Counted from the first letter of the stretch, positions 3,677-63,878 are shown. The stretch is 64,000 bases of DNA from Candidatus Bathyarchaeia archaeon (GCA_050010755.1 JBEKKK010000001.1:1248001-1312000), one strand, 5' to 3'. Translations and numbers: made by a program. The notes: generated by a model not told the origin, from the sequence alone.

Positions 3677-3737
3677 CGCACGCTGGACGCTAAAACCTCC
3701 TGCAAAACCACAAAAGGCAATCAGGGCTCTCTGACCG

Positions 3738-4198: not shown

Positions 4199-4343
4199 CA
4201 CAGCGGTAAACCAGAGCGCGCGCTGGTGGGTAGCTCTTTTGATTCCGAGTATTGATTGTTTGTTCATAACTCTTTAAGGCGTGCTCCATTCATCATGTGT
4301 AATTCAATGCGTCGCATTACCCGTAGGCATAGATGGGGACAAG

Positions 4344-42397: not shown

Positions 42398-42489
42398 AAT
42401 AGTCAAGAGGCCGCAGACTTCCTTTCCACAGGAGAGCCAACAACCCCTTCAAAAACAAATTCACCAAAAACAACAGCACACTTTTGACC

Positions 42490-42905
42490 ATTTTCGCAAC
42501 ACGCATTGTCAACCAACATCGCCGTTTACGCTTACACATTACGCTGCAACATTACGTCTGACGTAAAGAAAAAAAGGGGAGGGGCCGTTCACAGTTAAAA
42601 TCTTCCACCCCAGCACGACGTCAAACTCACGAACAGAAAGACGACAGACACTAACAGTCACCGCCAACACGGAGATTTACGCTGCAATATCACAATGCAA
42701 TATCATAATTGACCTCACCATAAACGGAAAAAGTTTAGCCGCAAGGCGCAGTAAAGCCTGTTTAAAACATGGTTTGTCACGAAACAAAATTACAACTAAC
42801 CTCAAACCATAGAGCCGGAGGGGGCGAAAGCAACATGGAAAACTTACAAAGCAACATTACATTGCAACATTACATCTTATGTAAAGAAATAAAAGGGAGG
42901 GGCAG
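42490..42905 (+). repeat. Two complete and one degenerate copy of the non-coding element
   Basis: Cores at 42526 (dyad TTACGTCTGACGTAA), 42677 (degenerate, no G-string) and 42844 (TTACATCTTATGTAA). Confidence 0.88.
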
Positions 42906-42916
42906 ACCGCACGAGT

Positions 42917-44233
42917 TCAGAACGGTGCCTTCAACGATGAAGAGTCCATCTGACTTTCTTCCTCAACGCCTGGAACTTCCTTCATGTTCTTGTCCAGCCT
43001 CACCTTTCCCAGGGAAAGCACGCAGATGTCTCCCGAAACCGGCGTGGATATCTTCAAGCTTTTCCTCAGATAATCAATCGCCTGCAGCACACCTATGCCG
43101 AGAAACCTCCTGTTCGAATCAAACACGCCCGCGAGCAACCCCTCTTCTTCACCCTTCCGAGTCACAACAACCTTCTTCTTCACATACTCCTCAACTTTCC
43201 TAACGTTATCAGGATCAATCCAACGCCTCCTTCCGATGATAACACACACCTTGTCACTCACCTCGGAAAGCTGCAGAGGCTTCATCCCCAGAAGTCCATT
43301 AATCTTGTCCGCCTGTCTAGCGCTCATACGAGCCTTGCAAATATCAAAAAGCTCATTCCCCTCAAACTTCAACCAGCTCAACGAAAGCGACTGCACCTTC
43401 GAATTCCCCAAATACTTTATGTAACCAAGCTCCCGCAAGCTCCTACGCCTACCAATATCCCTCTGCCTAATAGCAAAAGGAGACTCCACAACAACTTTCT
43501 TAAAACCCTCAATCCCAGCAATAACAGGAGAAAGCTCATCCTTCTGCTGAACACAGAAGACGATATCCGGCCTAAGCTCCCCAACAAGCCGAACCTTATA
43601 GTCCAGCGCCCCTTCACCCTCAACCCAACCGTCAGTGTTTATCACAACGAACTCAGGGTTGCTCGCCAAGATTTCCTTCTTCAAAGAGGCTAATGCCCCA
43701 ATCACCTTATCCCCAACATTGCTTGCAGACGTCTCCCCAATGAAGAAAGCATTCTTCGCACGCAAACTGAACAAATCTGTAATCGGCCGCGCAACAAAAG
43801 CATACCCGACCGTTGACGGAGGCCCTATGTCCGACTGACCTAAATCTCCATCCAGAACCGCCACCTTCTTCTTCTCAGCCAAAGCCCTGTTCACAAGAAG
43901 CGTGCAAAAGCTTGATTTTCCAGAATCAACCGTTCCAAGCACCATCGCCGTAACAGGTTTCTTTTCTAAACCCAGGAACTCCTTAGATCCTTCATTCCAA
44001 GAACCCGGAACCGTGGTCCCCTCGACTTCTTCCGCCGAACCCGTGTCTCCCAATGCGATTTCGAAGGCGGCGGTTTCCTCCACAACAAACGGCAACCTCT
44101 TGCCCTCCCGCACAACAACTTTCGCGGTCCCACTAATGACCGAGCCAAACACTTCCACCTTGCCCGAAGTCACTAGGACCGAGGCTGGCCCATCAACCAG
44201 CAGCGTTGTCCCTTTCTTAACCGTTCGATTCAT
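42917..44233 (-). CDS. Clp1/Nol9-family polynucleotide 5'-kinase
   Basis: GTVDSGKS, DGDLGQSDIGPP, INTDGW, RRRSLRE. Confidence 0.92.
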   Translation of the reverse strand: MNRTVKKGTTLLVDGPASVLVTSGKVEVFGSVISGTAKVVVREGKRLPFVVEETAAFEIALGDTGSAEEVEGTTVPGSWNEGSKEFLGLEKKPVTAMVLGTVDSGKSSFCTLLVNRALAEKKKVAVLDGDLGQSDIGPPSTVGYAFVARPITDLFSLRAKNAFFIGETSASNVGDKVIGALASLKKEILASNPEFVVINTDGWVEGEGALDYKVRLVGELRPDIVFCVQQKDELSPVIAGIEGFKKVVVESPFAIRQRDIGRRRSLRELGYIKYLGNSKVQSLSLSWLKFEGNELFDICKARMSARQADKINGLLGMKPLQLSEVSDKVCVIIGRRRWIDPDNVRKVEEYVKKKVVVTRKGEEEGLLAGVFDSNRRFLGIGVLQAIDYLRKSLKISTPVSGDICVLSLGKVRLDKNMKEVPGVEEESQMDSSSLKAPF

Positions 44234-44870
44234 CTGACATTCTCCTCTGAAACCTATAGCCCCTTCTTCCAGCTATTTGTATCGCTGAAACGATATCCCT
44301 CAAGCCTCTTCTATGTTTCGTTTCGCTCAGACCACGACTTGTTCCAGACTCACTCACGCTTTCCAGCGAAACGCTCGCTGGCAACGTCTCGTCCAAGACA
44401 CGCAACAGATTCTGAGTACACTGCGGAACCCCGTCACCTATTTTCACGGAAATAGATTCGACCGCAGCGCCTTCGAAATCCCTCACGATACCTGCTATCT
44501 TGTCCGATGCTTCTTCGAAGCCGAAACAGTTTCCTGTTTCTTCAACTTTTCCATCAGCCAGAACTGCCCACCCAAAGACTTCACCAGGATCCACGCCAAT
44601 TGTGATTCTCTGAAAGAACGCCTTTCCCTGAACGCTTCTTAACGCCTCGCTTACTAACGTTTCCAGGCGCATCCCCTCTTGCAAAGCGAGTATTCTCTTA
44701 TGCCTCACCAAAGGTTTCTCTTTCTCCGTCGTGATTACAACTTCAATTTCTATGGGAACCGATTCATATGGAGTCAGACTCAGGAACGGCACATTCCTCC
44801 TCTTTAACTCATTGACAATCAAATAATAATCTTTCCCACAAACCGTTACGACTGCTATTTTCGCTTTCAT
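44217..44870 (-). CDS. RNase H-fold (YqgF/RuvX-like) protein
   Basis: IGVDPG..GWAV, KIGDG, VSE.GTS, D..SA..IA. Confidence 0.7.
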   Translation of the reverse strand: MKAKIAVVTVCGKDYYLIVNELKRRNVPFLSLTPYESVPIEIEVVITTEKEKPLVRHKRILALQEGMRLETLVSEALRSVQGKAFFQRITIGVDPGEVFGWAVLADGKVEETGNCFGFEEASDKIAGIVRDFEGAAVESISVKIGDGVPQCTQNLLRVLDETLPASVSLESVSESGTSRGLSETKHRRGLRDIVSAIQIAGRRGYRFQRRMSDESNG

Positions 44871-44952
44871 ACCTCAATCCTGTTTGCACAAGGCATTCGA
44901 ACGCAAAGCAAATTATAGGTTTCGACGTTTATATTTGTTGGCGTGTACAAAA

Positions 44953-45651
44953 GTGCTGCGAAACATTTCCACAGGTAGCAAGGCAATAGATGCGGATCTG
45001 GGCGGAGGTCTGATGGCAGAGAACATTAACCTCATCTACGGTGAGGCCGAAACTGGGAAAACAACCCTTGCTATGCAGTGCGCCGTGAATTGTGCCAAGC
45101 AAGGCCACAAAACATTATTTGTCGACTGCGACGACACGTTCTCAGTTGAGCGACTCGGCCAGATAACAGCCAAAAGATTCGCAGAAACAGCCGAACTCAT
45201 CATCCTGACGAAGCCCCACAACTTTCGCGAACAAGCAACAATCATAGATCAATTGGCCGATTACACCACAAACAACTTTACATTCACAATCTTCGACACG
45301 TTCACATCACTGTACCGCCTAGCAGTTTCAGAGTCCCCATCAAAAACGTTCGAATTGAATCGAGAACTGAACAGACAGCTAGCAGTATTAGCTCAGACAG
45401 CCAAAATCAACAAAATCGCACTTCTCATAACAAGTCAAGTCCATAGCGTTCTTGACCATGCTCCAATGACTGTGGAACCCGTTGCCACGAGGGTTCTAAA
45501 ATTTTGGGCCAGCGAAATAATCGCCTTAACACCAACCGAAAACCCCCAGATAGTGAAAATGACCCTGGAAAAAAACCCTCGAAAACTCCAGACCAAGACT
45601 CACCTCCTTAGGATTGAAGAGTCCGGAATACACGATTATCCCAATCACTGA
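44953..45651 (+). CDS. radB: RadB/RecA-family recombinase paralog
   Basis: STGS..ID..LGGG, YGEAETGKTT, FS.ERL, TSQV. Confidence 0.8.
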   Translation: MLRNISTGSKAIDADLGGGLMAENINLIYGEAETGKTTLAMQCAVNCAKQGHKTLFVDCDDTFSVERLGQITAKRFAETAELIILTKPHNFREQATIIDQLADYTTNNFTFTIFDTFTSLYRLAVSESPSKTFELNRELNRQLAVLAQTAKINKIALLITSQVHSVLDHAPMTVEPVATRVLKFWASEIIALTPTENPQIVKMTLEKNPRKLQTKTHLLRIEESGIHDYPNH

Positions 45652-45664
45652 TGGAGCCAACGAA

Positions 45665-46165
45665 ATGGAGATAACTAATCTGATTGTCAAAGCGATAATT
45701 TTCATACTTCCAGCATACTGTGCCAATGCAACTCCAGTCATTGCAGGAGGAGGTTTGCCGATGGACTTGGGGAGAAAATTCATTGACGGAAAACCAATCT
45801 TCGGAAAAAACAAGACCTTCCGAGGTTTTTTTGTCGGTTTAATCGTCGGCACGTGCGTCGGCCTTGGAGAAAGCACTATTTTCAAATATCCTTTAACGTT
45901 CGGTCTGCTGTTGTCGTTAGGCGCCCTATTCGGTGACCTTGCCGGAGCTTTTCTAAAAAGGAGACTCGGAATTGCGCCTGGAAATCTCTTGCCGATTGTA
46001 GATCAAATCGATTTCGTCGTGGGCGCACTAATCTTTTCGCTTCTACTCTCCTCGTCTCTGCTCACTTGGGAACTCGCTTTGACAGTTCTTCTAATTACCC
46101 CACCGATCCATCTGCTGACAAATTTTACAGCCTACAAATTGGGGTTGAAAAGAAACCCTTGGTGA
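45665..46165 (+). CDS. carS: CDP-archaeol synthase
   Basis: PAYCANA.P, GKNKTFRG, GDL..AFLKRR, DQIDF, K..PW. Confidence 0.95.
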   Translation: MEITNLIVKAIIFILPAYCANATPVIAGGGLPMDLGRKFIDGKPIFGKNKTFRGFFVGLIVGTCVGLGESTIFKYPLTFGLLLSLGALFGDLAGAFLKRRLGIAPGNLLPIVDQIDFVVGALIFSLLLSSSLLTWELALTVLLITPPIHLLTNFTAYKLGLKRNPW

Positions 46166-46172
46166 ACTATTG

Positions 46173-46595
46173 TCAACCGCCGCTGAGCTTCACTTTTATC
46201 GCGAGCTCCAAAAATATGTAAGCCATGAATGCTAAGGCCAACCCGATTATGAGCATCATGTAAGCCTGTCTAGGCTTATAGATGTACCTCGTGCTTTGAT
46301 ACACCACTATCAATCCGATCACACCCATAGAATAGATGATTGCCGCAAGAACACTGTCGCTAATAAATTGCTCAGTAAGATATGGATTGAGAAAGAGGAA
46401 TGCATTATTATAGTAAACTGCAGCCAAAGGCTTCTGAATCAAATCGTAAATTCCACCTGCAAAAAGAAACACCGCAAAACCAACCGCCAAGATTGGGATA
46501 AGGAGATTCGACGGCTTAGCATTTATTATCGTCCTATAAAGCCTGTTAACTGAAAATGACAGCGACGAGACACGCCTCTTAACTGATCTTGACAT
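46173..46595 (-). CDS. OST3/OST6-DC2(OSTC)-like oligosaccharyltransferase accessory subunit
   Basis: 3 TM; GGIYDLI.KP...F......QFI.DS..A...Y.MG..GL parallels the eukaryotic DC2/OST3 C-terminal pattern. Confidence 0.6.
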   Translation of the reverse strand: MSRSVKRRVSSLSFSVNRLYRTIINAKPSNLLIPILAVGFAVFLFAGGIYDLIQKPLAAVYYNNAFLFLNPYLTEQFISDSVLAAIIYSMGVIGLIVVYQSTRYIYKPRQAYMMLIIGLALAFMAYIFLELAIKVKLSGG

Positions 46596-46777
46596 TCTTC
46601 AGGTCCTCCTTTTCCATCAATTGCCAGGCAACTTCTTCTATTCACTCGCCTGTAAATGGAATCTTAGCAATCTAACTTAAATACTCTTTCCAAGAGATCC
46701 CCACAGCTTTTCTCCAACCAATATAATTCTTTATGATGATGGTACGGTCTTTTGCCTTGTTCCGGCAACAACCCTAT

Positions 46778-48883
46778 TCATCCACTCAACTGCCCCATAT
46801 TCGACGTTGCAATTCCTCTCTCTCCTTTTCCTTTCAACGCGCAATCAGGATTGAAACACAATATCCATAGTTCTCTTCCTTTCGTTCGGACTTGAATGGT
46901 AGGCCATCCGCACCCTCTGCAGTTCTTGCCATTCGCTTTGATTGTGCCCCTTTGTGGGATAGCAAACGAAGCCCTGCACAATCCTCTAAAGTAGTTAGTA
47001 CAGCCGACGAAGCGTTTTCCAGTTTTCTTCGAGCGTACAGTCACAAGCTTTCCAGTCTTGCAGATTGGGCATGCCCCGATCATGCTTTCTTCCAATCTTG
47101 TCTTTTCCAAGGCATTACTCAAGCGCTCACCGATCTCTTCCTCTTTTTGCTGAAGTTCCTTCAGCATTGGTCCAAGAGTTTCAATTGCACTGGCCAAGAC
47201 GTCCTCCCTTTTTACTAGGTTCTGGCATATCCCATTGATACTGTCCTCCAGCTCCCTTGTCATTTCAACAGAAACGATTTTCCCACAATTACTCTGCAGA
47301 GTTTCCAAAACCCCAAAGCCCAAGTCAGTCACTTCCATTCTCTCGTTTCGAATATATTTTCTTTCATAAAGAGTCTGTATTGCATCGGCTCTAGTCGCCT
47401 TCGTCCCAATTCCAACCTCTTCCATTTTTTGAAGCAAGGTGCTAGGATTATATCGTGGCGGCGGCTTAGTGAATCTGCTTTCTAGGATGACCTTCTTGAA
47501 GTTGACCATTTGCCCCTCCTTTACCGGAGGCAACAGCGTTTCCTTTGATATTACGTAAGGCCCGTAGAATCGTTGCCATCCTTGTTCTAACGTACATTTT
47601 CCTTCGGCAAGGAAGAGATATTCGTTGACCTTGATTTTCGCCCTGACAATCTGCTTTACTGCTGGCTCACCGAAAACCGCCATGAACCTACGAACCACAA
47701 GATCCCAAATACTTCTCTCAGATTTGTTCAGCAATCGTTCGGGCAAATTCCCGGTTGGAAAGATGGCTGGATGAGCTGAGTCTTCTCTGGCTCCTTCATG
47801 GGGCTTCAACGTTGGTTTGCTCAAAAGATCAGCCGCAAGCCTCCATTCTCGAACGCTGCTCAAATTCTTAAGAATCATACGATAGTTTATCGCGGCAGGA
47901 AGCTTTTGGCTACCCGTTCGTGGATAAGAGATTAACGCGTCCAAATACAAACGTTGAGCGATGCTTAAAGTTTTCTTGAGGTCATATCGAAACAGTTTAT
48001 AAGCTTCAACCTGCAAGCTCCCTAAATCAAAAGGAACAGGTGCTAGTTGCTGAAATTGTAGGGCTTCCACCTGTTCAATTTTTCCGCTTCCTTTGCAGGC
48101 AGTTCTAACAGCGTCTGCTTCTTTCTTAGTATTTATCACTCTCTTTTCGAATTCTGCTAGGCAAGTTTGTCCATCTATTTCCACCTGTGCTTTGATTCGC
48201 CAATACGGCATGGGTACGAAACTTCTTATGGAATTTTCCCTGGAAACTAAAAATTTTAGGAGCGGTCCCTGAACTCGACCCGTGCTCAACGCACTGTATC
48301 TTCCGCTCCAGTTCTTCACCGCAAACGTCAGGGCTCTAGAGAGATTGATGCCATAAAGCCAGTCAATTTCATGCCTCGTTGTGCCAGCTTCGACAAGCGC
48401 AAAATCCAAATGCGGTAGAGACTCGTCGTAAGACTTTTCCAGTTCTTCTTTAGTCAAGGTGGAGTATTTCATGCGTCTCGACACTTTTTCCTTGTTCTTG
48501 CAAGCGTATTTCAGAATACAGTATCCAATTATGCTTCCTTCCATATCGTAATCGCAAGCGTCAATGAAAGAATCTGCTTTCTTGGACAGTTTCGAGATGA
48601 CTTGAAGCCATGTGCGGATATGCTCTGCTTTTCTCTCGGCCTGAAATCGAGGCACCCATTTGAAATTGAAAACGGGATAAGTGCGTCTTCCCTTCGCTCC
48701 CGACGAAACCGTGTATAAGTGTCCAAGCGCAGGAACGATCACAATTTCCTTGTCACGCCTAGCCACGTAGTAGGGGACACCGTCCTCTTCCATCATTCTT
48801 GCGTTCTGGCTCAGGTCAAGCGCTGAAGCTATTCTTCGAGCAGCATCCGGCTTTTCAGCGATTATTAAAGTATACTTTTCCAT
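46778..48883 (-). CDS. topA: Type IA DNA topoisomerase
   Basis: IAEKP, GHL, DYD.EG, GRVQ.P, ISYPRT, GIGTKATR, C-terminal Zn ribbons. Confidence 0.96.
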   Translation of the reverse strand: MEKYTLIIAEKPDAARRIASALDLSQNARMMEEDGVPYYVARRDKEIVIVPALGHLYTVSSGAKGRRTYPVFNFKWVPRFQAERKAEHIRTWLQVISKLSKKADSFIDACDYDMEGSIIGYCILKYACKNKEKVSRRMKYSTLTKEELEKSYDESLPHLDFALVEAGTTRHEIDWLYGINLSRALTFAVKNWSGRYSALSTGRVQGPLLKFLVSRENSIRSFVPMPYWRIKAQVEIDGQTCLAEFEKRVINTKKEADAVRTACKGSGKIEQVEALQFQQLAPVPFDLGSLQVEAYKLFRYDLKKTLSIAQRLYLDALISYPRTGSQKLPAAINYRMILKNLSSVREWRLAADLLSKPTLKPHEGAREDSAHPAIFPTGNLPERLLNKSERSIWDLVVRRFMAVFGEPAVKQIVRAKIKVNEYLFLAEGKCTLEQGWQRFYGPYVISKETLLPPVKEGQMVNFKKVILESRFTKPPPRYNPSTLLQKMEEVGIGTKATRADAIQTLYERKYIRNERMEVTDLGFGVLETLQSNCGKIVSVEMTRELEDSINGICQNLVKREDVLASAIETLGPMLKELQQKEEEIGERLSNALEKTRLEESMIGACPICKTGKLVTVRSKKTGKRFVGCTNYFRGLCRASFAIPQRGTIKANGKNCRGCGWPTIQVRTKGRELWILCFNPDCALKGKGERGIATSNMGQLSG

Positions 48884-49316
48884 GATTGAAACAGACCATG
48901 TTGAATTCGCTAAACCCTGCATCTCTGAACTCTGGTGTATTGATCAGAATATTGAACTTTTCCTCCGTTGAATGTTCTTCAGTCCTTTCGTTCCCAAGCC
49001 GCTTCTAGCACCGCGAGTCACAAGGGAAATTCCTCAAAAGTCACAATTAGATCCGTCAATGTGCTTGAAAGAAAACCCATGCTTATGAGTTGTTGATCAC
49101 GGTTGTCTTCGGTCTATTGAAAAACGCAAATGAAGGAGTAAGACGGAAGGAGTAAGACGCATGCACTCGAATCTTCGTTCTTAACAAGACAGAAGAATGC
49201 TTCGCAGAAAAGATATTGTCGTTCGCGCGATCACGCATCTTGCACCGATTCCTCTAGCAACTGATAAATATGCCGCGAACGTGTAGTTCCCTTGTTGATA
49301 ACGGAGTGCAGCGTTT

Positions 49317-49481
49317 ATGCCTCAACGTGTAACCTGTCAAGGCTGTGGCCACGTGTTGTATGAAGGGCCTGATCTAAAACCCCCGGATGAAATTTTACAC
49401 GAGCATGAAGGTAAGTGTCCGAGTTGTGGCAAAAAACTCTCCTTCATTCCTATAGACGTAAATGTGAAACCTTCGAAATGA
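49317..49481 (+). CDS. 54-aa C4 zinc-finger protein
   Basis: Hand translation MPQRVTCQGCGHVLYEG...KCPSCGKKL; not in the ORF track. Confidence 0.8.
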   Translation: MPQRVTCQGCGHVLYEGPDLKPPDEILHEHEGKCPSCGKKLSFIPIDVNVKPSK

Positions 49482-49502
49482 TCCATTTTTGAGGAAAAAG
49501 AC

Positions 49503-50651: not shown

Positions 50652-50761
50652 AAACGAAATCTCTCCTAGCTCACATTTTTCTTTTGGAAAAGTATATAAC
50701 GACGGCCCATGTCATCTAAACTAACTTCAAACAGTAAGTAACCGTAAACAAAATAACAGAC

Positions 50762-53065
50762 TTGAACATAGCCAGTAGGAGGAAGGAAACCAAAGTGAAG
50801 CTGCCCAACATATCTCGAGAAACCCTGGGAAAACTTCGAGTAAAGATCAGTTCCACTTCTTTGCTTTCTTTCGCGGCGTTGATACTTATCCTGTTCATCG
50901 CTTACATCATACGCATGCTTCCACTGCGTTGGGAAATTGGATCTGGAACAGGCTTCATAAACCTGTCCGAGTTTGATGCATTTTTCGAATTTCGCATAGG
51001 TAACTATATGGTGCAAAACGGGTTGCTTTCGCCTTATTGGCCAAAACTGTGGCTCGATACCCAACTCTGGTATCCCGCGGGAATTAACATGGGCACAGAA
51101 TCGCTACCGTCAATACCCATGACTGGAGCTTTTCTTTATGACATAGTTCATGCTCTGGGGGTCAACATAGATTTTATGAGTTTTTGTGCGCTTCTTCCAC
51201 CAATATTTGGCACCTTGTGTGTTCTAATTATGTATTTCATCGGCAAGGAATATGGAGGAAAAGCCGTCGGATTGCTCGCTGCGCTTATCTTGGCTCTGGA
51301 CGCATCTTTTATTACAAGAAGCAATTTGGGCTGGTTTGAAACTGAAACAGCCACATTTTCCTTTCTGCTTTTCTTTTTGCTTTTTCCGAAAGCAATCGAA
51401 GAAGAGAGATCGATAAGCTCCTCATTGAAACTGTCGCTGGCCTGCGGATTGTGCTTGGCCTACTTCATATGTGGGTGGGGTGCAGCGTATTATCTGGTAG
51501 ATTTGGCAGTACTCTTCGTTTTCGTCTTGCTCCTGTTGAGAAGGTACACCCGGCGCATACTGTTTGCCTACAGCATAACATATGGATTAGGGCTTATAAT
51601 AGCAATGAGCGCTCCATTCTTGGGAATACAATATCCAGTAAGCTATGCGGTCTTGCCCGTGGCTGGCGTGTTCCTCTTGCTGTGCCTTAGTGAAGTTCTG
51701 AAGATTCTAACCTCGGCAAGAGAGAGATTCGCCCTCGTAGTAGCAACCATAATAGCCATCATTGGCGCCTTCACGGCTATCTTCACCCTAGGATATGCAA
51801 ATAACATAGCGGGCAAGTTCATAACAGTCTTGGATCCTTTATTACGAAGTGCCAGTCCACTCACTGAGTCCGTTGCTGAGCACGGTATAACCGCTTGGGG
51901 CTCAATGTATTATGATCTGGGCATCTTGATTCTTTTCTTTGTTGTCGGGCTGTATTTCATTTCAAGAAATCTGGTCAACAAGAACCTGTTCTTGTTACTC
52001 TTTGGATTGACATCACTGTACTTCGCTGGCTCCATGGTGCGCTTGCTTTATCTTCTAGCACCAGCCTTTGGCCTTATCGCCGCCGTAGGAATAGTAGGTA
52101 TACTGAGACCATTCATCGCAATGCTGAAAGAACCACCGAAGATAACAACGAAAAAGTTTCGTCTAGAGCATGTGGGAAAAGAATTTAGCGGAACTGCCGT
52201 TTTCCTAATATTCCTGATTCTAGTGACGCAGTTTGCGGTGTCACCGCAGTCAGGTGGCATTCCAGCTGTGTACACGCAAGCTTACAGTCCTTTGACGATT
52301 ACGGCAGCGAGCCTTCCCATAGTTCCCAATGCTGCTGTAACAGAATGGCTTGACATGGTTACATGGACTAAGAATAATCTCGCTTCGACCGACGTCGTGG
52401 ATGCTTGGTGGGACTATGGATTCTGGCTGACAATTCTCGGAAATGTGACGACGCTCAACGATAACGCCACGATAAACGGAACGCAGATAGAAAATGTGGG
52501 TTTCACGATGATGGCAAACGAGAATGATTCAATAAAGATGCTGAAGGCTTACAATGCAAAATACATTCTCGTCTTCACCACGCTCGCCATAGAATCGCAA
52601 TCAGGTATAAACTACGCGGTTGAAGCTGGCTACGGAGACGAAGGAAAATGGACGTGGATGGCAAGGATCTCCGCGCAGAGCAGCTATGACATTAATGTTA
52701 CTCCCACCTCCCCTTGGACAAACTGGAATTGGACTGACGAGACGGCGTTCGGATCATTCACAAATGTTACTACCTATTGGCCGAACGATTGGTTATGGAA
52801 CAACCAAGGAACAAATTCGACGATTTATCAACTGATGACTTGGGCGAGAACCTTGTATTGCAATGCGCAAGGAGTAACCGACCCCGACGCGGGCAACGCT
52901 ACTGGAGGAATAAACCCCGATACTGGCGTGTCAAACCCCGTGCCACTCTACTTTACACCTGCACACATTTCCGGGTTGGATCTTAACCCAACTGACGCCA
53001 CTGATCAGTACGGTGGGTTGGTGCCACTCGTCGCGCTTTTCAAGATAGACTATCCTGACGGGTGA
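50762..53065 (+). CDS. aglB: Oligosaccharyltransferase AglB/STT3
   Basis: EFD, SVAEH, WWDYG, DNAT.N, multi-TM. Confidence 0.95.
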   Translation: MNIASRRKETKVKLPNISRETLGKLRVKISSTSLLSFAALILILFIAYIIRMLPLRWEIGSGTGFINLSEFDAFFEFRIGNYMVQNGLLSPYWPKLWLDTQLWYPAGINMGTESLPSIPMTGAFLYDIVHALGVNIDFMSFCALLPPIFGTLCVLIMYFIGKEYGGKAVGLLAALILALDASFITRSNLGWFETETATFSFLLFFLLFPKAIEEERSISSSLKLSLACGLCLAYFICGWGAAYYLVDLAVLFVFVLLLLRRYTRRILFAYSITYGLGLIIAMSAPFLGIQYPVSYAVLPVAGVFLLLCLSEVLKILTSARERFALVVATIIAIIGAFTAIFTLGYANNIAGKFITVLDPLLRSASPLTESVAEHGITAWGSMYYDLGILILFFVVGLYFISRNLVNKNLFLLLFGLTSLYFAGSMVRLLYLLAPAFGLIAAVGIVGILRPFIAMLKEPPKITTKKFRLEHVGKEFSGTAVFLIFLILVTQFAVSPQSGGIPAVYTQAYSPLTITAASLPIVPNAAVTEWLDMVTWTKNNLASTDVVDAWWDYGFWLTILGNVTTLNDNATINGTQIENVGFTMMANENDSIKMLKAYNAKYILVFTTLAIESQSGINYAVEAGYGDEGKWTWMARISAQSSYDINVTPTSPWTNWNWTDETAFGSFTNVTTYWPNDWLWNNQGTNSTIYQLMTWARTLYCNAQGVTDPDAGNATGGINPDTGVSNPVPLYFTPAHISGLDLNPTDATDQYGGLVPLVALFKIDYPDG

Positions 53066-53949
53066 AGGAAGACATTTTGTTCCCCAGAGCTCCTGACCAG
53101 CATAAGCCAAACAGGCCGCTGGTTCCGAACGGTTTAGGCATCTTCTATGTCATTATCAGCGCTGTTTACATTTTTCTTCTGTATTTCTTCGGCGTGGAGA
53201 ACGTGGCTAACGGGATTTCTGCGCCTCTTACCTTGGCGGCATGCATATTGTTCGGTGGTTTCATGGGCCTGCTGGACGACTGGATCGATCTCAGGTGGCG
53301 ATACAAGGCGTTCCTTCCACTTGTGGCTGCCATACCTCTTGTTACTTTTGCAAGTAAGGTCGGAGCGCGTACTTCGATAGCCCTTCCGCTTTTGGGAACC
53401 ATCCACTTCGGACCGGTATATTACTTTATAATCATTCCAGTCCTCGTGACGATAATCACGAACACTGTTAATCAGCTTGGTGGTCTGAACGGTTTAGAAA
53501 CAATCTGTCCCGCAATAATTATGATAGGGCTGATGGTCATCTCAGGATCTTTCGCAATTCTCCTGCTTTGTCCGTTGATTGTTTGGCTGATACTTGCCTT
53601 CTTTAATTTTCAAGGCAGAATTTTCATCGGTAATACTGGATCTTTCGCCATAGGGATTACGCTCGCTGCTTTTGCAGTTATTTCGGACCTGAAGTTCGAT
53701 TTGGTGATTTCAGTTTTGCCATACATATTCAACTCAGTTGTAATTCTCTTGACATTTTTCTTTTACAAGACTAAGGCCAGCGTTTCCTTTGACGGCAAGC
53801 GACTCGTGTCAGATCACAGGAGGAGCCTAGTAACGCTTATCTCGTTTAACCGTCCGCTGACCGAAAGACAGATGGTCATCATAATCTCGCTTTTGGTTGC
53901 GGCAACAACTTTCGCAGCTGTCCTTGCTCGACTACTGTTAAATCTCTGA
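53062..53949 (+). CDS. aglH: UDP-GlcNAc:dolichyl-P GlcNAc-1-P transferase (GPT/MraY family)
   Basis: GLLDDWIDL, N..N..GGLNGLE, IFIGNTG; GTGA overlap with aglB. Confidence 0.85.
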   Translation: MKEDILFPRAPDQHKPNRPLVPNGLGIFYVIISAVYIFLLYFFGVENVANGISAPLTLAACILFGGFMGLLDDWIDLRWRYKAFLPLVAAIPLVTFASKVGARTSIALPLLGTIHFGPVYYFIIIPVLVTIITNTVNQLGGLNGLETICPAIIMIGLMVISGSFAILLLCPLIVWLILAFFNFQGRIFIGNTGSFAIGITLAAFAVISDLKFDLVISVLPYIFNSVVILLTFFFYKTKASVSFDGKRLVSDHRRSLVTLISFNRPLTERQMVIIISLLVAATTFAAVLARLLLNL

Positions 53950-54034
53950 CACTTTGATTTCCCTCAAACTCGTTTTTCAACGCAGTGCCCTAAAGAAAGA
54001 GTACGTGGCCAACACGGTTCGCAGAGCAGCGCGC

Positions 54035-56725
54035 CTAGAGGAAATGTTCCAGTTTCGTCAGGCCGATTATTTCTTCAAAATCTAGGCCTAGGGCGTCTAA
54101 GACCTGATCAAACGTTGATTGCAGATAGGCGACGTACTTGTCGACATCGACCTCATTCCGTGTTGCGAGTTCGACAGGCTTGACGTGTGGTTCCCTGGTG
54201 ATCTTGACGAAGCTTATCAGGTCGCCTGCCTTCAAGTCTGCCCCTTTTTCTCTCAAGATTTTGGCAGCTTTTACATGTTGTGGCGTTGTCTTTGTGTAGT
54301 GTTCTATGTCCTCCCCCAAGACCACGTTGAAGGCGAGATCGCTCATGCTGTCCCATTCTCGCCTCTTGAGTTGCTGGTAGCACTCCCGCACATTTTCTGC
54401 TATATCCATTTTCGCTTTCTCGAAATCTGCAGGTGTCTTAACAGTCGCCAGATGTGTTTTCATTCTTTCAAACGCCTTTTTTATGAAAATTGGTATATGC
54501 CGTTTCTTGCCTGTAAGTCCTTTTACGTCAACAGTCCCATCTTCTAGCACGCCTAAGTAGTTCTTTTTTCGAGAACTGAACACGGCGTACCTGTAGACCT
54601 TGTCAACGTCGAGACTCATTTTTAGCTCTTGCTCAGTCCAACCTGCCAACTCTTCGATCTGTTGCTTCGAAGGATTTTTCAAGAATAGGCTGTCCGTGTC
54701 TCCATAAAGCACTTGGATATTCAGCTTCTCAGCTTTGCCGAGTATTTGTGTTATAGAGTGTCTCCCGATTGCAGCGGTAGCTTCGGCCACCGGTGGACAA
54801 TAAAGGTCGAAGCTTTCGGCTCCAAATACTCCGTAGCTTGCGTTCAGAATTACTTTTAACGCTCCTTGAGTTACGTTATACCAACTTCTTAGGTCAGGGG
54901 TAAGAGCCTTGTCTTTGGATTTTGGTTTGTACCATTGCACTCGCAAGTCCCTCAGCGAGCCGATGAGAAGACTTTCTAGCGCCCGTTTTTTCCTGCAGAC
55001 CCAGTGGGGCGTGCCAGGAATGACGTTGCTACGGCATTCAGGGTGTTGACACAAGATGGATTGGTAGCCCAAGTTCCAGACCTTTATTATTGAAGGGTAC
55101 AAGCTTGGAAAGTCCATAACGGCCACATTGAAGTGAACTCCGGGAACAGGCTCAACGACAATGGCGCCCTTGTATTTTTTGCCCTTGATGATTGCTTTTG
55201 TCGCGGTCTTGCCCTTCATTGCTAATATTTCTTGAGGGGTTGGAATGAGCATGTTTCTGTGGCGATGTTCTCTTTGGAGGAAGTCTCTTATCCAGCGCGA
55301 CACCCCTTGCCTGCTAACATCCTCCATGGGCATGCTGCTGATTCTCGCGAGTAGAAGAATCAGCTTCATGACCTGTTCGTCTTCGAAACTTGTGAGTTTG
55401 AAAGTTATTTCGGAGTCCCTGAAACAGTATTTGGCCAGTTCAGTGTAAGTTAGCTCTCCCAAGTTTTTGTCAAGCTGAATTTTCTCCAGTCGGATTAGGG
55501 CCCTTCCTACCTCGTTGAGGGTCACGTCCCGGTAGCGGCCGTTAAAAGCGTATATTTGGATTGAGCGATTAAAGAAGAACTTGTAGAGATCAATGTGGAC
55601 TCCATAGCTCAGAAGGCAGGAGCGTTTGCCGATTTCTATTGGAATGTCGCTGTGCTTTATGCCTAGGTTCATGGCGCGGTGGGCTAGATAACGGAGGTCG
55701 AAATCGTCCCCGTTGAACGTTAGCACGAAGGGGTAGTCCCAAAGGGCGTCGAAAACGGCTCTTAAGAGTTTTTCTTCTGTGTCGAAGTATTCGATTGTTA
55801 CGCCCGCAGGCAAGTGTTCTGTTCCTTCGCGGATTTCTTCTCGCTTAAGAACGAGAATTGTCTCAAGCCCGTCAGAGGCGAACATTGACACGCAGATAAC
55901 TTGGTAAGCCGCCTCTCTCGGGTCTGGGACTCGTGTCGGAATGGGCGCCAATACCTCGATATCGATGGCTACGCGGCGGAACTTTGGAGCTGGATATTCC
56001 AGAAGTCTGGCCCATTCTACTATGAACTCGCATTCTTCGCTCGTAGCTTCCTTGAAGACTTCGCGTATTTTTGCCACTGTTCTTTCCGTGTCCTGCAAGG
56101 TTTTCTTAACGAGATTGCTGTCTTTGACCTCGTAAATCATTCCTGGAAACAGGTTTCTGTCGAATATGTAGGATTGATAGTATTTTATCGTTGATTCCCA
56201 TACTTTGATTTGATCTTGGGCTATTGGTGTTTCCGAGACTTTGGGGAAGTCTTCGGGTATTATGTCTCTGATGCATCCTGTTGGGCGTCCGCCGATGGCG
56301 AGAGGATCTTTGGTCAGGATTTTTGTTATTTTCACGTTCTTGTCCAGAAGGGGGTCGAATTTTTCGACGATTTCAAATCGGTCTAGACCCTGGTGCTGGG
56401 TCAAGCGGCTGATTCTTTCAAGCTCGTACCGTGACAGGTTGGTTAGGCAGTATGGCTGGTGTCCGGTGTTGTCGTACCAGAAATAGATCTGTCCCGAGAT
56501 TGGTTCATAGAGTTTCATCACTGCCTTTCCAATTTTTCCGTCGTATGTGGCGGATACAATGTAGGAAGCGGACAAGTTCTGAGGTGCCACTGGAGGAAAA
56601 GAAAAGCGTTTCACTTTTTCATTGGCCCGGCTTCCAGAGATGACAGCGATTCTGGGCTCCGCTTTCTCCTCTTTCACATACGGAGCTTCTTTGCGTGCAA
56701 AGTCTTCTAAGCGTTTCTGTGCCAT
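54035..56725 (-). CDS. polB1: Family B DNA polymerase PolB1
   Basis: DIEV, FNGDDFD, DFPSLYPS, K...NASYG, YGDTDS, KKNY; WYDNTGH.PY N-terminus typical of B1. Confidence 0.95.
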   Translation of the reverse strand: MAQKRLEDFARKEAPYVKEEKAEPRIAVISGSRANEKVKRFSFPPVAPQNLSASYIVSATYDGKIGKAVMKLYEPISGQIYFWYDNTGHQPYCLTNLSRYELERISRLTQHQGLDRFEIVEKFDPLLDKNVKITKILTKDPLAIGGRPTGCIRDIIPEDFPKVSETPIAQDQIKVWESTIKYYQSYIFDRNLFPGMIYEVKDSNLVKKTLQDTERTVAKIREVFKEATSEECEFIVEWARLLEYPAPKFRRVAIDIEVLAPIPTRVPDPREAAYQVICVSMFASDGLETILVLKREEIREGTEHLPAGVTIEYFDTEEKLLRAVFDALWDYPFVLTFNGDDFDLRYLAHRAMNLGIKHSDIPIEIGKRSCLLSYGVHIDLYKFFFNRSIQIYAFNGRYRDVTLNEVGRALIRLEKIQLDKNLGELTYTELAKYCFRDSEITFKLTSFEDEQVMKLILLLARISSMPMEDVSRQGVSRWIRDFLQREHRHRNMLIPTPQEILAMKGKTATKAIIKGKKYKGAIVVEPVPGVHFNVAVMDFPSLYPSIIKVWNLGYQSILCQHPECRSNVIPGTPHWVCRKKRALESLLIGSLRDLRVQWYKPKSKDKALTPDLRSWYNVTQGALKVILNASYGVFGAESFDLYCPPVAEATAAIGRHSITQILGKAEKLNIQVLYGDTDSLFLKNPSKQQIEELAGWTEQELKMSLDVDKVYRYAVFSSRKKNYLGVLEDGTVDVKGLTGKKRHIPIFIKKAFERMKTHLATVKTPADFEKAKMDIAENVRECYQQLKRREWDSMSDLAFNVVLGEDIEHYTKTTPQHVKAAKILREKGADLKAGDLISFVKITREPHVKPVELATRNEVDVDKYVAYLQSTFDQVLDALGLDFEEIIGLTKLEHFL

Positions 56726-56878
56726 CTCAGTTTTGACCCTGTTACCTTTATGCGTTCAAAACCTAAAATCTCTTCTCCTCTGGGCGAAAACATCCGGTCG
56801 GACGTGACGCACGCTGAATACAGAATGCCTTTAATTCTCATTCGCTTGATCCTTGATGTTTGAGGAGATGCTGAAGCC

Positions 56879-58243
56879 ATGCTTAAGGAAGCTTGGATGC
56901 TTTCGATTGAGACCCTGAGCTGGATGGAAATGCGAAGGTTAAGCGAGCCGTTGGCTTTGGCGAGGACTGTTAAACAGCTGGGAGTTACTGATTACAACGT
57001 TGTGAGGATGGCTCACCTGCTTGTTTCTGAGACTGTGAGACGGAAGAACTTTATAGACAGGTTCATTGACGGCGTTGTGAAGCCAGATTCTTTGAGTGAT
57101 TTCGATTTTGGAACTCGGGCGTTTTTGAGGCTTTATGTCTATCAGGCTCGAATTGTCAAGAACTGGGTTAGGGCAGATTTTGACGAGGCCGAGAACGTCG
57201 TGAAGCTTGGTCGCTCTATCTTGGGGTGGAAGACTCTGCAGAGGGTCGAACCGTTTCTGGGCGTGTTGCTTACGCAAGAGGAGGCTTCGGTGTTTGAGGG
57301 TGGAAGCGACGAGCAATTGATCGGGCTTCGGACTTTTCACCCATCGTGGTTTGTGAGATACTGCATAGGGCACTTCGGCAGGGGAGAGACAGTTGACGTG
57401 CTGCGGGCGGATATGAAGCCGCCTCCGAGCTACGTGAGGTTGAACACCCTTAAGGCTGATGAGGTCGAAATTCTGCAGAGGCTCTGCGGAGACGGGGTTA
57501 GCGTTGAGAAAGTCGACGGGTTGAGATATACGTACGAGGTTACGGCCGCTTCTCAGCCTGTGGCCAGAACTGCAAGTTTTCAAGAAGGGTTGCTTTTTGT
57601 ACAGGATAAGGCAAGCTGTTTCGCCGTAGAAGCAGGAAACCCAAAAGGTGGCATGACCGTTCTTGACGTCTGTGCGGCGCCGGGAGCGAAGACCTCATTC
57701 CTGGCACAGCTGATGCAGAATAGGGGTGAAATCATCAGTGTGGATTATTCAAAGCGCAGGATGGCTACATGGGAGAATGAAATCAATCGGGCCGGCGTTG
57801 GGATTGCCGAGCCGGTGATTGCTGATGCGCGGTTCAGTTTGCCTTTGGATGTCAAGGCTGACTTGGTGGTTTTGGATCCGCCGTGTACGGGAACGGGCAC
57901 TTTTGCGAAGAATCCGGCGGCCAAGTGGAGGCTTGCGCCGAGGTCTATTGAGAAGATGGCTGAGATTCAGTGGCAAATGTTGAATAACTGTTCTGATTAC
58001 GTGAAGCCTGGAGGAACGCTGGTTTATTCTACGTGTAGCATAACCGTTGAAGAGAATGAGATGCTGATTGAACGGTTTATGAAATGGCATCCGGAGTTTT
58101 TGCTGACTGAAATAGCGCCGAAGATTGGTTTGCCAGGGCTGAGGGGGCTGGACAAGTGTCAACGACTTTATCCTCACGTGCACCGTTGCAATGGGTTCTT
58201 CATCGCAAAACTGTTGAAGAGCAAGGGCACGGAAGGTGCCTGA
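56879..58243 (+). CDS. RsmB/NOP2 (Fmu) RNA m5C methyltransferase
   Basis: QDKAS, D.CAAPGAKT, DPPCTGTG, YSTCS...ENE, GFFIA. Confidence 0.95.
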   Translation: MLKEAWMLSIETLSWMEMRRLSEPLALARTVKQLGVTDYNVVRMAHLLVSETVRRKNFIDRFIDGVVKPDSLSDFDFGTRAFLRLYVYQARIVKNWVRADFDEAENVVKLGRSILGWKTLQRVEPFLGVLLTQEEASVFEGGSDEQLIGLRTFHPSWFVRYCIGHFGRGETVDVLRADMKPPPSYVRLNTLKADEVEILQRLCGDGVSVEKVDGLRYTYEVTAASQPVARTASFQEGLLFVQDKASCFAVEAGNPKGGMTVLDVCAAPGAKTSFLAQLMQNRGEIISVDYSKRRMATWENEINRAGVGIAEPVIADARFSLPLDVKADLVVLDPPCTGTGTFAKNPAAKWRLAPRSIEKMAEIQWQMLNNCSDYVKPGGTLVYSTCSITVEENEMLIERFMKWHPEFLLTEIAPKIGLPGLRGLDKCQRLYPHVHRCNGFFIAKLLKSKGTEGA

Positions 58244-58290
58244 GGCTTCAGCTCCTCCTTCTTGGCGCGGGCAGCGGTTTTCGTTCTGTG

Positions 58291-59190
58291 TTATTGTTTT
58301 CTTGATTTTTCGATGAAACAGAGGAGTTCGAAGATTATTTTTGCGGCCTGAATGGCTGAGATGCCTTGGTCGTAGTTTGGGGCGATTTCGAGGACGTCGA
58401 AGCCTAGCACGCGTCTGTCGCACACGCTTTCGAGCATGTCGAGTAGAACGTTTGTTTCAAGTCCGTCTGCTTCGGGGTTTTGTGCTGCGGGAACGTAGGC
58501 GGGGTCGAGAACGTCCATGTCGACGGATATGTAGATGTTCTTGTAGGCGTCGAGTATTTTCTTCAGTTTGTCGGCGCTTCGTTGGGTTCCCTGTTTTCTT
58601 ATCTGTTGGGTTGTGAGAGATTCTATTCCTGCCTTCTTTGCGTATGCCAGTTCTTCTTTGCAGACTGCTCTTGTGCCGACTTCTATGATTTTTGCGGGTT
58701 TGGTTTCTTCGTTTATTCGGCGCATGAAGGTTGTGTGGGAGAGTTTGAGGCCTAGGAACTCGTTGCGCAGGTCGAGGTGTGCGTCGAAGCTGACTATCGC
58801 CGTTTCGGAGGCTTTGTCTCTGAGGCTTCTTGCGATTCCGAGGGTTATCGTGTGTTCTCCGCCGATGGTTACGGGTGTTTTTTGATTTTCAACGATGCTT
58901 GTTATGACGTGTTCTAGGGTTTTGAGGGTTTTTTCGGTGTTTGCGGAGACGTGCAGGTCGCCTAGATCGTGCAGGGATAGGTCTTCAACGTCTGTTCCTG
59001 TGCGCATGCTGTAGGTTTCGATGTTGAGCGATGCTTGTCTAATCGCGGTGGGACCGAAACGTGCTCCGGTGCGGTAGGTGCTGGTGACGTCGAAGGGAAC
59101 GCCTAAGATTATGTAATCTGCTTTTTCGAACGGTTTTTGAAGTCCGCTGAAGACGTTTGATTGTGAAACGAATAGTTCTTGATCGCTCAT
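58291..59190 (-). CDS. speB: Agmatinase
   Basis: GGEHT, DAHLD, D.DVLDP, E.AP. Confidence 0.93.
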   Translation of the reverse strand: MSDQELFVSQSNVFSGLQKPFEKADYIILGVPFDVTSTYRTGARFGPTAIRQASLNIETYSMRTGTDVEDLSLHDLGDLHVSANTEKTLKTLEHVITSIVENQKTPVTIGGEHTITLGIARSLRDKASETAIVSFDAHLDLRNEFLGLKLSHTTFMRRINEETKPAKIIEVGTRAVCKEELAYAKKAGIESLTTQQIRKQGTQRSADKLKKILDAYKNIYISVDMDVLDPAYVPAAQNPEADGLETNVLLDMLESVCDRRVLGFDVLEIAPNYDQGISAIQAAKIIFELLCFIEKSRKQ

Positions 59191-59395
59191 ACGCGTTTTC
59201 ACGTCCTGCCCTGTTTATCTTGGCCCTCGGTTCTAAACCTTTCCATGTCTCCTCCTGAAGTGGCAGGCTCACGGCATTTCTTTCCAATTCCAGACGAATG
59301 GCTTCCCGCGAGCTTTACAGTGACCCTCGGAAGAAGCGGGCTAGAGTCGCCTCTCTCTTTGAGTCCAGGTCCAACATTAGGCTTTATCACAAGAT

Positions 59396-59520
59396 GTCAA
59401 CTGTGAACGGTGTCCCCCCTCCCCTTTTTTTCTTTACATCTAATGTAATGTTGCTTTGTAATGTTGCTTTGTAAGTTTCCCATGTTGCGTGTGCGCGTTC
59501 CGAAAAAGGCTAAACTTGGA
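59396..59520 (-). repeat. Inverted copy of the non-coding element
   Basis: Reverse complement CCAAGTTTAGCCTTTTTCGGAACGCGCACACGCAACATGGGAAAC-TTACAAAGCAACA x2-TTACATTAGATGTAA-AGAAAAAAAGGGGAGGGGGGACACC closely matches the 4088-4198 copy. Confidence 0.92.
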
Positions 59521-62415: not shown

Positions 62416-62753
62416 CTGAGGATTAGCGCGCGCTCTCGCATTGGTTCAGAAAACATGCATAAGAGACTCTGCGCGTGCTGGCAAAGCGCCGCGTGCGCCA
62501 TCAAAATCACAATAACGTTACTACTGTAAAGTCGTTTCACTTGTTGAGCGCGCACTAACAGTAGAATGGCCATATGACGGAAAATGATGCGGCTCACGTG
62601 TCCAATATTGATTGTGAATCCAGTATGTTAATATGCTGCGTTCTCGAGTCTATCGGAGTAAGCAAGATTTTTGCCCATAGTATCGTGAAACCGGATTGTT
62701 CCGTTTTTGCTTTTGGCATATCTGCTAGAAGAAAAGAATTCGAGGTGAAAAAC

Positions 62754-63656: not shown

Positions 63657-63878
63657 AGCCACTAAAAGGAGCTATGGTAACCATCTAGAAGCTTATGCCT
63701 AGCGCGCGCTGGAAGATGGATTAATTTATGGATACCGTGATGACCATTTGACAAGGCTTCAAGCGATACTTCTATTACGGAGATTGAATAAATTCGGTCT
63801 AGTTGAAGGATTCAAGGGAACTCAAAGTCATTTTGGAAAATCAACCATCAAGTTTGTAGGATAGGAAGGTGAGAAAAA

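Follow-up and report, generated by a model that had tools for sequence, protein, structure and literature searches.

The window analysed here, a stretch of 64,000 nucleotides (nt) from the Candidatus Bathyarchaeia archaeon assembly GCA_050010755.1 (JBEKKK010000001.1:1248001-1312000), carries seven copies of a short repeated element, three at 3.7-4.2 kb, three at 42.5-42.9 kb and one inverted at 59.4 kb. As a first-pass annotation of this DNA had described, all of them lie between open-reading frames (ORFs) and in different gene contexts: the 42.5-kb array is flanked by convergent genes for an nth-like HhH-GPD protein and Clp1, the stop codon of clp1 (42917) lying 15 nt past the end of the last unit; the 4-kb array is upstream of a PAS histidine-kinase gene (4281-7070); and the 59.4-kb copy is followed, ~200 nt downstream, by an arginase-family speB gene (start 59202). 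A gene for a CARDB protein is also among the neighbours. The genome (G000; 2.19-Mb assembly, 93% complete, with contigs C1, C2, C3 and C8 referred to below) is archaeal by its Clp1, single Cdc6_C gene, eRF1, RFC and L10e. All copies are members of a modular, non-coding repeat that is interspersed in the genome of this uncultured archaeon and restricted to its genus, and the new observation is that three integrase-bearing elements are each inserted in an iteron of this repeat, which points to the repeat as a multi-copy attachment site. No published account of the repeat family was found in the literature on Bathyarchaeota intergenic repeats or among the listed matches on archaeal integrase attachment sites.

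A repeat search of the window grouped the direct copies at 3766, 3947, 4128, 42520, 42671 and 42838. It also paired 4094-4194 with 59414-59514 (101 nt, 83% complementary), in agreement with the reported resemblance of the 59.4-kb copy to that at 4.1 kb, and 42816-42902 with 59416-59502 (inverted, 87 nt, 84%). The palindromic dyads and the tail common to the 42.5- and 59.4-kb copies were found where the annotation had placed them (Table 1). Allowing at most one mismatch, the iteron GCAACATTAC was counted 12 times in the window against 3.3 expected, a number reached in 0 of 100 shuffles, and its 10 exact matches all fall inside the three loci, while the G-box motif AAAGGGGAGGGG was counted five times against 0.28 expected, which no shuffle reached. 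A nhmmer profile built from six window copies then gave 83 hits (E<1e-3) in 50 intergenic clusters of the 2.19-Mb genome, bearing out the earlier expectation of many more copies genome-wide. These clusters comprise 24 solo units, 19 doubles and 7 triples; all 26 multi-unit clusters are co-oriented, with a unit spacing of 150-195 nt.

A T5 run and CATGG are followed, in a full unit of ~180 nt, by two or three ACATTAC iterons of 13 bp, the last of which is overlapped by a 15-bp dyad; an A7-9 run, the GGGGAGGGG box (G-box) and a looser linker make up the remainder. Alignment of 45 copies gave the consensus order CCAAGTTTcAGCC, TTTTTCGGAACAC, ~8 nt, AACATGGAAAc, TTACAnnnGCAACATTACAnnnGCAACATTAC, the dyad TTACATCTGATGTAA, AAAGAAAAAAA and GGGGAGGGG, with the linker CGTTCAC..TTGAAATC...AAAC.CGAAGAAAA..CGACCT.AACGCGCGC after the G-box. 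Among these paralogous copies, the ~45 nt preceding the linker (last iteron, dyad, A-run and G-box) are near-invariant and the remainder is ~55-65% identical. Subtypes are distinguished by the dyad and the upstream iterons: subtype A has a perfect dyad (24 copies), subtype B has TTACAACAGACGTAA (10 copies and 3 close variants), subtype C has TTACGTCTGACGTAA (4 copies), and in subtype D iterons 1-2 are replaced by a GGACACACATGTG..TCC palindrome. They are mixed within arrays, head to tail. Small ORFs across the core were rejected on reading the copies, as the lengths of the A-run (7-9) and the G-box vary and shift the frame.

Three elements of ~9.3 kb with a divergent tyrosine recombinase were found elsewhere in the genome, each inside an iteron and with a core repeat of 7-9 nt at both junctions (Table 1). 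In C1, a subtype-A unit is cut after ...CATTACATTACAACAT at C1:196164 and resumes with ACAACATTACATCAGATG... at C1:205486, and rejoining the flanks gives 72 nt identical to the intact unit at C2:8413. The C3 element splits, at C3:16387/25719, a Y-like module of the type present at 42768-42825 in the window, which also precedes type-A units in several arrays; its rejoined flanks rebuild a module like C1:196060-196110. The third element crosses a contig end and measures ~9195 bp if the 74-nt contig overlap is real. All three have the recombinase gene at the right end, 80-125 nt inside the junction (C1:204311-205405, C3:24487-25608 and C2:93-1091), and TTAATCAGTTGATTAAAAAAG near the left end, 45-65 nt inward of that junction. 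The C1 and C3 elements have two proteins in common and otherwise differ in DNA. Three independent insertions into a 9-10-nt iteron indicate that a non-coding repeat offers a mobile element ~80 alternative attachment sites, and an intact iteron such as that at 42864-42873 in the window is therefore a potential attachment site. Judged from sequence, the iteron would be the chromosomal attachment site of this element family.

Table 1 Positions of the integrative elements (contig coordinates) and of the repeat units and their parts (window coordinates)
Feature	Position	Strand	Details
Integrative element in C1	C1:196158-205492		Core ACAACAT at 196158 and 205486, 9328 bp apart
Integrative element in C3	C3:16387-25727		Core ACAACATTA at 16387 and 25719, 9332 bp apart
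Integrative element in C8/C2	C8:11877-end and C2:1-1362		Core GCAACATTA at C8:11877 and C2:1354
Unit 1 of the 42.5-kb array, subtype C	42482-42600	+	nhmmer C1:1290482-1290594 (window 42482-42594), E 3e-28; cmsearch 42533-42588, 78.4 bits
Unit 1, T-run module	42482-42502	+	
Unit 1, ACATTAC iterons	42533-42555	+	
Unit 1, dyad	42552-42566	+	Perfect, TTACGTCTGACGTAA
Unit 1, A-run	42565-42575	+	
Unit 1, G-box	42576-42584	+	GGGGAGGGG
Unit 1, tail	42585-42596	+	CCGTTCACAGTT
Degenerate unit	42605-42767	+	TTTACGCTGCAATATCACAATGCAATATCA...; repeat copy 42671-42724, 70%; nhmmer 42657-42713, E 2.7e-4
Y-like module	42768-42825	+	CATGGTTTGTCAC...AAATTACAACTAACCTCAAACC...GGAGGGGGC, from reading the sequence
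Last unit of the 42.5-kb array, subtype A (Z)	42826-42911	+	nhmmer 42802-42911, E 1.3e-22; cmsearch 42851-42906, 77.7 bits
Last unit, CATGG	42834-42838	+	
Last unit, iterons	42851-42860, 42864-42873	+	GCAACATTAC
Last unit, dyad	42870-42884	+	TTACATCTTATGTAA, followed by the A-run
Last unit, G-box	42895-42902	+	
Third iteron of the subtype-A unit	42864-42873	+	GCAACATTAC, intact; motif type hit by integrative elements elsewhere in the genome
Further GCAACATTAC motifs	59445-59454 (-), 4154-4163, 3973-3982, 3792-3801, 42546-42555		
Solo subtype-A unit, inverted	59320-59519	-	nhmmer 59402-59514, E 5.8e-28
59.4-kb unit, 5' module and T-run complement	59501-59519	-	
59.4-kb unit, CATGG complement	59480-59484	-	
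59.4-kb unit, iterons	59458-59467, 59445-59454	-	
59.4-kb unit, dyad	59434-59448	-	TTACATCTAATGTAA
59.4-kb unit, T/A-run	59425-59431	-	
59.4-kb unit, C/G-box	59414-59424	-	
59.4-kb unit, tail	59400-59411	-	Reverse complement of CCGTTCACAGTT
59.4-kb unit, linker homology	to ~59320	-	Weaker, read from the alignment
Three-unit array	3729-4203	+	Units 3729-3840, 3914-4019 and 4093-4203; 181-bp period; nhmmer C1:1251729-1252203
Three-unit array, dyad	4160	+	TTACATCTGATGT

The genome holds four paralogous recombinase genes, the three above and C2:199486-200484, all with the element core just upstream in divergent orientation. Pfam leaves them unnamed at 1e-5. Nevertheless, tblastn pairs the recombinase with an integrase from this genome that is Pfam-positive (8e-9), the family profile of the recombinase matches the XerA-type structure 4a8e_A (E 9e-10), and the catalytic residues R (within a GLR motif, in 5 of 7 rows), K, HxxR (HxLR) and Y are in register across the paralogues, which also have a C-terminal coiled-coil region. 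The cargo of the C1 element includes an HK97-gp10-like tail-completion protein (Pfam 26.4 bits; phrog_5 9.5e-13) and that of the C3 element an HNH endonuclease and a ribbon-helix-helix-like protein, while most other ORFs of the three elements match nothing. The ~9.3-kb elements could be small proviruses or virus satellites; with the recombinase as query, no relative was found in viral contigs, nor a homologue in the sister-taxon loci described below. Both ends of contig C2 (1-1106 and 199471-200576) reproduce the recombinase end of the element, as inverted copies with 91.6% identity, and the last 74 nt of C8 are the first 74 nt of C2, indicating that the assembly breaks at integrative elements. 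The notion that the repeat units derive from integrative-element ends was discarded, as these ends share no similarity with the unit modules.

The distribution of the repeat was followed outward from four relatives of the same genus (G001-G004, G001 being 77% complete). In these, CATTAC-N5-7-CATTAC was counted 44 times in G004, 24 in G002, 6 in G001 and once in G003, with ~1 expected by chance; the reversed-pattern control is uninformative for this motif because it reads the same backwards. Among 120 other genomes of the order, ACATTAC-N5-6-ACATTAC gave one match (G053), which is chance level. The exact 23-mer two-iteron core was absent elsewhere in a scan of one genome per species, where five bacterial stretches were taken as chance, and two core patterns gave 0 matches in viral contigs. 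The family is thus confined to one genus and expanded in this lineage. In G001, G002 and G004 the modules follow the fixed order X-Y-Z(-W) with a period of ~87 nt, Z being the counterpart of G000 subtype A. X- and Y-like relics are present inside G000 arrays, including 42605-42825 of the window, where the degenerate unit is homologous to the X module by comparison with the units of loci L043 and L044.

Conservation of individual copies across the genus is uneven. Upstream of speB, the arrays of G001, G002 and G004 match the 59.4-kb copy in both place and orientation. At this position G003 has a 114-aa Phage_integrase-family fragment (L045 2497-2841, E 3e-10) where the other four genomes have the repeat; its kinship with the element-linked recombinase was rejected (E 0.28). 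At the 3′ end of clp1, G001-G004 have no element and a different neighbour, and at all five further G000 loci compared (upstream of RFC, upstream of NadA, upstream and downstream of AlaRS, and downstream of AspRS) nothing comparable was found in G001-G004, or in G002-G004 for AlaRS, for which there was no G001 match. In the AspRS-GATase gap the flanks are too diverged for exact insertion borders. G004 is without the C3 insert, but its neighbouring gene also differs. A separate observation concerns the site ~600 nt upstream of NadA, where G002, G003 and G001 (L178, L180 and L181) have the 3′ end of a tRNA gene (…GGTTCAAATCCGGCCCGCTGCACCA), G004 (L179) keeps its last ~15 nt and G000 has, at the corresponding distance, a two-unit repeat array; this site may be an old integration hot spot.

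A metagenome scan with the 23-nt core returned 51 loci, 20 identical to G000 and 31 from taxa roughly 75-93% identical. Most of the 31 map to G000 loci that also carry the repeat, with a different unit number at 5 of the 15 compared; several join regions that are far apart in G000. A two-unit array present at one locus in two sister taxa is missing from G000, the break falling exactly after the G-box. These comparisons show that the repeat has multiplied in this lineage and that unit number and neighbourhood change quickly between close relatives.

Taken together, we read the copies, with a probability of roughly 0.7, as an interspersed repeat similar to the bacterial interspersed mosaic element (BIME) and to BOX, serving as a multi-copy attachment site for integrase-bearing elements. 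The best-kept 45 nt would then be a recognition site for a protein, predicted to be the integrase and/or a host protein; the repeat may have been spread and homogenised by recombination, possibly by that integrase and not by a transposase; and the T-runs on both strands may incidentally terminate transcription. Several points weigh against this. Integration and excision are read from junction anatomy only, the recombinase by itself stays under the Pfam cut-off (Phage_integrase E 0.017), and distant homologues of it in G001, G002 and G004 have no adjacent repeat. The boundaries of solo units lie near CCAAGTTT... and ...AACGCGCGC and away from the iteron, which leaves the spread of the repeat itself unexplained. 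Nor does a role as attachment site explain the conservation of the core, which in orthologous copies is 83.8% identical (686/819) against 75.2% (623/829) for the 5′ part of the unit and 79.7% (2572/3229) for the flanks, in a comparison that may mis-pair paralogous units, or the kept place of the speB copy across the genus; a host function (terminator, insulator or protein binding site) may therefore be primary. Finally, the gene calls are our own codon-usage ORF picks, uncurated.

A further-reaching possibility is that the 9.3-kb elements provide, in their tyrosine recombinase, an enzyme that acts in trans to copy and stack the units, which would be non-autonomous integrative modules, and that exchange between iterons reshuffles the chromosome. 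Use of the iteron by the recombinase is seen at the insertion junctions, the region around the attachment iteron is the best conserved, and head-to-tail, subtype-mixed arrays are what tandem site-specific integration would give. Synteny breaks at nth/clp1, upstream of RFC and at L122, L129 and L131, one of them exactly at the G-box end, and G003 has almost no repeats and no recombinase homologue at E<=1e-5. However, the solo units are not circular permutations bounded by the iteron, the partner breakpoints C1:402353, 461295 and 975400 have no reciprocal repeat hit, the close recombinase clade was seen only in G000, yet G004, G002 and G001 have many repeats, and the pattern of adjacent subtypes is not significant (1 identical neighbour pair in ~14, by eye). 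We therefore hold this extension to be doubtful, if worth keeping in mind for what would follow from it: the units would be a tyrosine-recombinase counterpart of MITEs (miniature inverted-repeat transposable elements), exchange among ~80 dispersed iterons would drive the frequent synteny breaks at repeats, and an integrase of virus or satellite type would, through multi-copy attachment sites of its own, be remodelling a chromosome of Bathyarchaeia type.

High copy number, intergenic position and lineage-specific expansion would also suit a MITE or a repetitive extragenic palindromic (REP)-type element moved by a transposase, whether a DDE insertion sequence (IS) partner or an IS200/IS605 Y1 or REP-associated tyrosine transposase (RAYT) cutting at TTAC. 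The iteron contains TTAC, the target of IS608. This origin is very improbable in view of what the units and the genome contain. There are no terminal inverted repeats (TIRs), a minus-strand self-comparison of the full unit giving the internal dyad only. For target-site duplications (TSDs), which the first-pass annotation had suggested looking for, flanks shared six 8-mers against 1.6 in permuted data, three being window-overlap artefacts and three at inconsistent positions, in a test that is weak because the 5′ boundary of the units is fuzzy. Without TIRs or TSDs, classic MITE mobility is unsupported. Y1_Tnp (PF01797), the TnpB zinc-ribbon and RVT_1 each gave 0 matches in the 93%-complete G000, where DDE families were not searched one by one; a PF01797 control was positive in six known genomes. 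The absence of Y1_Tnp and TnpB domains led us to reject the IS200/IS605 or RAYT idea derived from TTAC, and that of RVT_1 to reject a retro-element, an idea suggested by the likeness of the purine tract to a polypurine tract.

With the G-box taken as the 3′ end of the element, 33 of 47 clusters have an upstream gene that runs in the same direction (p=0.008), the element is sense in 22 and antisense in 9 tandem-gene gaps (p=0.03), and 11 gaps are convergent and 5 divergent. In 42 of the 47 clusters the element has one or more gene 3′ ends facing it, and in convergent gaps the G-box end is mostly 6-73 nt (up to 191 nt) from the stop codon of the neighbour, as in the 15 nt at clp1. Such placement would suit a bidirectional host terminator or insulator in which the T5 run (forward) and the T7-9 run (reverse) stop flanking transcription and which would persist for its usefulness at the ends of genes. 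Archaeal transcription is terminated by oligo-T tracts, and the T-run before CATGG and the A-run after the iterons are kept in the versions of sister species. A terminator, however, leaves the iterons, the dyad and the G-box unexplained; five clusters lie between divergent genes, many are 100-400 nt upstream of a co-directional gene, and only ~50 of roughly 1700 gaps carry the element. This reading is unlikely.

The dyad and iterons could instead form an operator array, TTACA-N5-TGTAA, for a host winged-helix factor of the Lrp/AsnC or MarR type, and so define a regulon. In the promoter-proximal Z unit of the orthologous speB arrays, the outer arms TTACA/TGTAA are kept and the central 5 nt vary between species (TCTGA, AAAAA, GAAAA), and the speB copy is positionally conserved in four of five genomes. 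A family of winged helix-turn-helix paralogues has 11 copies in G000, three of them within 1 kb of elements (distances by eye). A regulon is nevertheless improbable, and the first-pass opinion that the copies are not a simple regulon operator is strengthened: the 79 flanking proteins are functionally diverse (unrelated neighbours include aminoacyl-tRNA synthetases, RFC, L10e, NadA, SHMT, eRF1 and transporters) and none is a transposase, and, of six loci examined, one has kept the element elsewhere in the genus and five are unconserved. The element moreover prefers gene 3′ ends, two pairs are mismatched in 17-19 of 59 dyads, and the next start codon downstream is anywhere from 41 to 405 nt away. 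The winged-helix family itself (HTH_24/AsnC/MarR-type, including C1:205863-206504) has 7-12 copies per relative; the G000 copies within 1 kb of repeat loci are C1:205863, C1:640820 and C2:7154 (coordinates read by eye). A promoter role was rejected, as speB, AlaRS, RFC and NadA have conserved promoter-like boxes that stand apart from the element and are dissimilar to it. Origin recognition boxes were also rejected: the single Cdc6_C gene (C1:514945) has its nearest elements at C1:497851 and C1:538671, at distances of ~17 and ~22 kb, and is flanked by unrelated repeats.

The first-pass annotation had proposed that paired positions of the dyad change together, a lead towards a structured small RNA or cis-regulatory RNA whose hairpin is held by compensatory change. 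This stood for one pair in one subfamily and failed for the remainder of the dyad. In 69 copies, a double change was found in one of six dyad pairs (A-U to G-C, six copies) against a shuffled mean of 1.3, and 16 copies are unpaired at this pair and 17 at the next. The covariation score of 0.101 compares with a shuffled mean of 0.089 and was reached by 24 of 500 shuffles, and the 88.5% of dyad cells able to pair compare with 87.7% in shuffled columns. Our own count over 59 dyads gave A-T 35, A.C 17, G-C 6 and G.T 1 at pair 5-11 and an A.A mismatch in 18 at pair 6-10, so that two pairs are each mismatched in about 17-19; 31 of the 59 dyads are perfect. The larger alignment is thus without significant covariation, the outcome that the annotation itself had said would refute its proposal.

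Folding gave the same picture. RNAalifold on 31 full copies gave no forward-strand structure and, on the reverse strand, only the dyad hairpin (-2.8). No fold-energy excess was found in single sequences (mean z +0.27 forward, +0.32 reverse), and Rfam, a search the annotation had suggested, gave 0 matches in the window at the gathering threshold. The stem has 6 bp and the loop 3 nt, and the remainder of the unit is A/C-rich with no partner strand. The hairpin is lost in other species of the genus, where direct ACATTAC repeats at a distance of 12 nt stand in place of the palindrome. The supposed compensatory change is one event in one subfamily, its score is near that of shuffles and the palindrome is lost in sister species, and there is accordingly no indication of an RNA helix; a structured RNA is hardly credible. 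These results show that the element acts as DNA and not as folded RNA, and they caution that a single symmetric change within a palindrome should not be taken for RNA covariation.

Some further features of the window and genome were recorded alongside the repeat. A 114-aa ORF at 3120-3464 (+) covers only positions 27-116 of a 204-position O-methyltransferase profile; it resembles a truncated gene, ~260 nt before the 3.7-kb array, and is possibly a rearrangement scar. A 677-aa ORF at 33588-35621 (-) consists mostly of tandem repeats of 66-69 nt (22-23 aa) in several families with 62-85% identity and looks like a gene for a repeat-rich, surface-type protein. Runs of (GC)n are a strong intergenic signal genome-wide (in the window, for example, at 4218-4230, 62425-62434 and 63701-63710). 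In the whole genome, GCGCGCGC was counted 253 times against 22.7 expected, 217 of them intergenic, and 668 distinct GCGCGC runs were found (434 outside ORFs; consensus aGCGCGCGct), which are densest in convergent gaps and peak 0-50 nt past stop codons (152 of 451 run-to-flanking-gene-end distances). In the sister-taxon loci L122 and L131 such runs also lie at block borders. They show no specific link with the ACATTAC element, and the idea that GCGCGC is an insertion target was rejected, with 10 of 83 repeat hits within 150 nt of GCGCGCGC compared to 7.4% of random intergenic points.

To our knowledge, a large body of work covers interspersed intergenic repeats in bacteria, and very little describes them in archaea. 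The present family is unusual in being built from iterons instead of hairpins, in being strictly head to tail and in being tied to a molecular user. It bears on the persistence of proviruses and satellites in uncultured archaea, on why assemblies and synteny break at these sites, and on the calling of provirus borders in such genomes.

REP/BIME repeats offer the closest general likeness, being likewise high-copy, extragenic and species- or genus-specific, with mosaic clusters of unit subtypes, a preference for gene 3′ ends and a role as insertion hot spots. REPs are described as hairpins of 20-40 nt in alternating orientation with a RAYT Y1 transposase as partner (PMC3333891, PMC2817692). The archaeal units, by contrast, are ~110-180 nt long, iteron-built, with a weak dyad, always head to tail and with no Y1 transposase in G000. 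Nor do they have the stem-loop of a REP, the sole inverted repeat being the 15-nt dyad, perfect in 31 of 59 copies and with no fold-energy excess. IS elements inserting specifically into REPs are reported in one study (Tobes & Pareja 2006, PMC1525189); here, the inserting element uses a tyrosine recombinase and not an IS transposase. MITEs resemble the units in being small, non-coding, multi-copy, intergenic and lineage-specific, but the units have neither TIRs nor TSDs, and an autonomous partner was looked for without success.

In Streptococcus pneumoniae, BOX has the arrangement boxA-(boxB)n-boxC, is dispersed between genes and is composed of modules predicted to fold. It has in common with the archaeal repeat a non-coding nature and distinct modules in a fixed order with variable internal units, comparable to the X-Y-Z(-W) order and the subtype order in G000. 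The two differ in that there is no sequence relationship, the archaeal modules show no fold and the host is an archaeon.

Archaeal integrases mostly use tRNA genes, which are perhaps favoured partly as a multigene family with many similar targets, and intergenic attachment sites (attB) such as that of psiM100 are given only as single loci in the passages available from the same source (PMC8371274). Like a tRNA-gene attB, the iteron provides a short core at both junctions, has the integrase gene beside one junction and is restored as a target when the flanks are rejoined. The difference lies in the target, which here is a multi-copy, non-coding intergenic repeat with ~80 potential sites.

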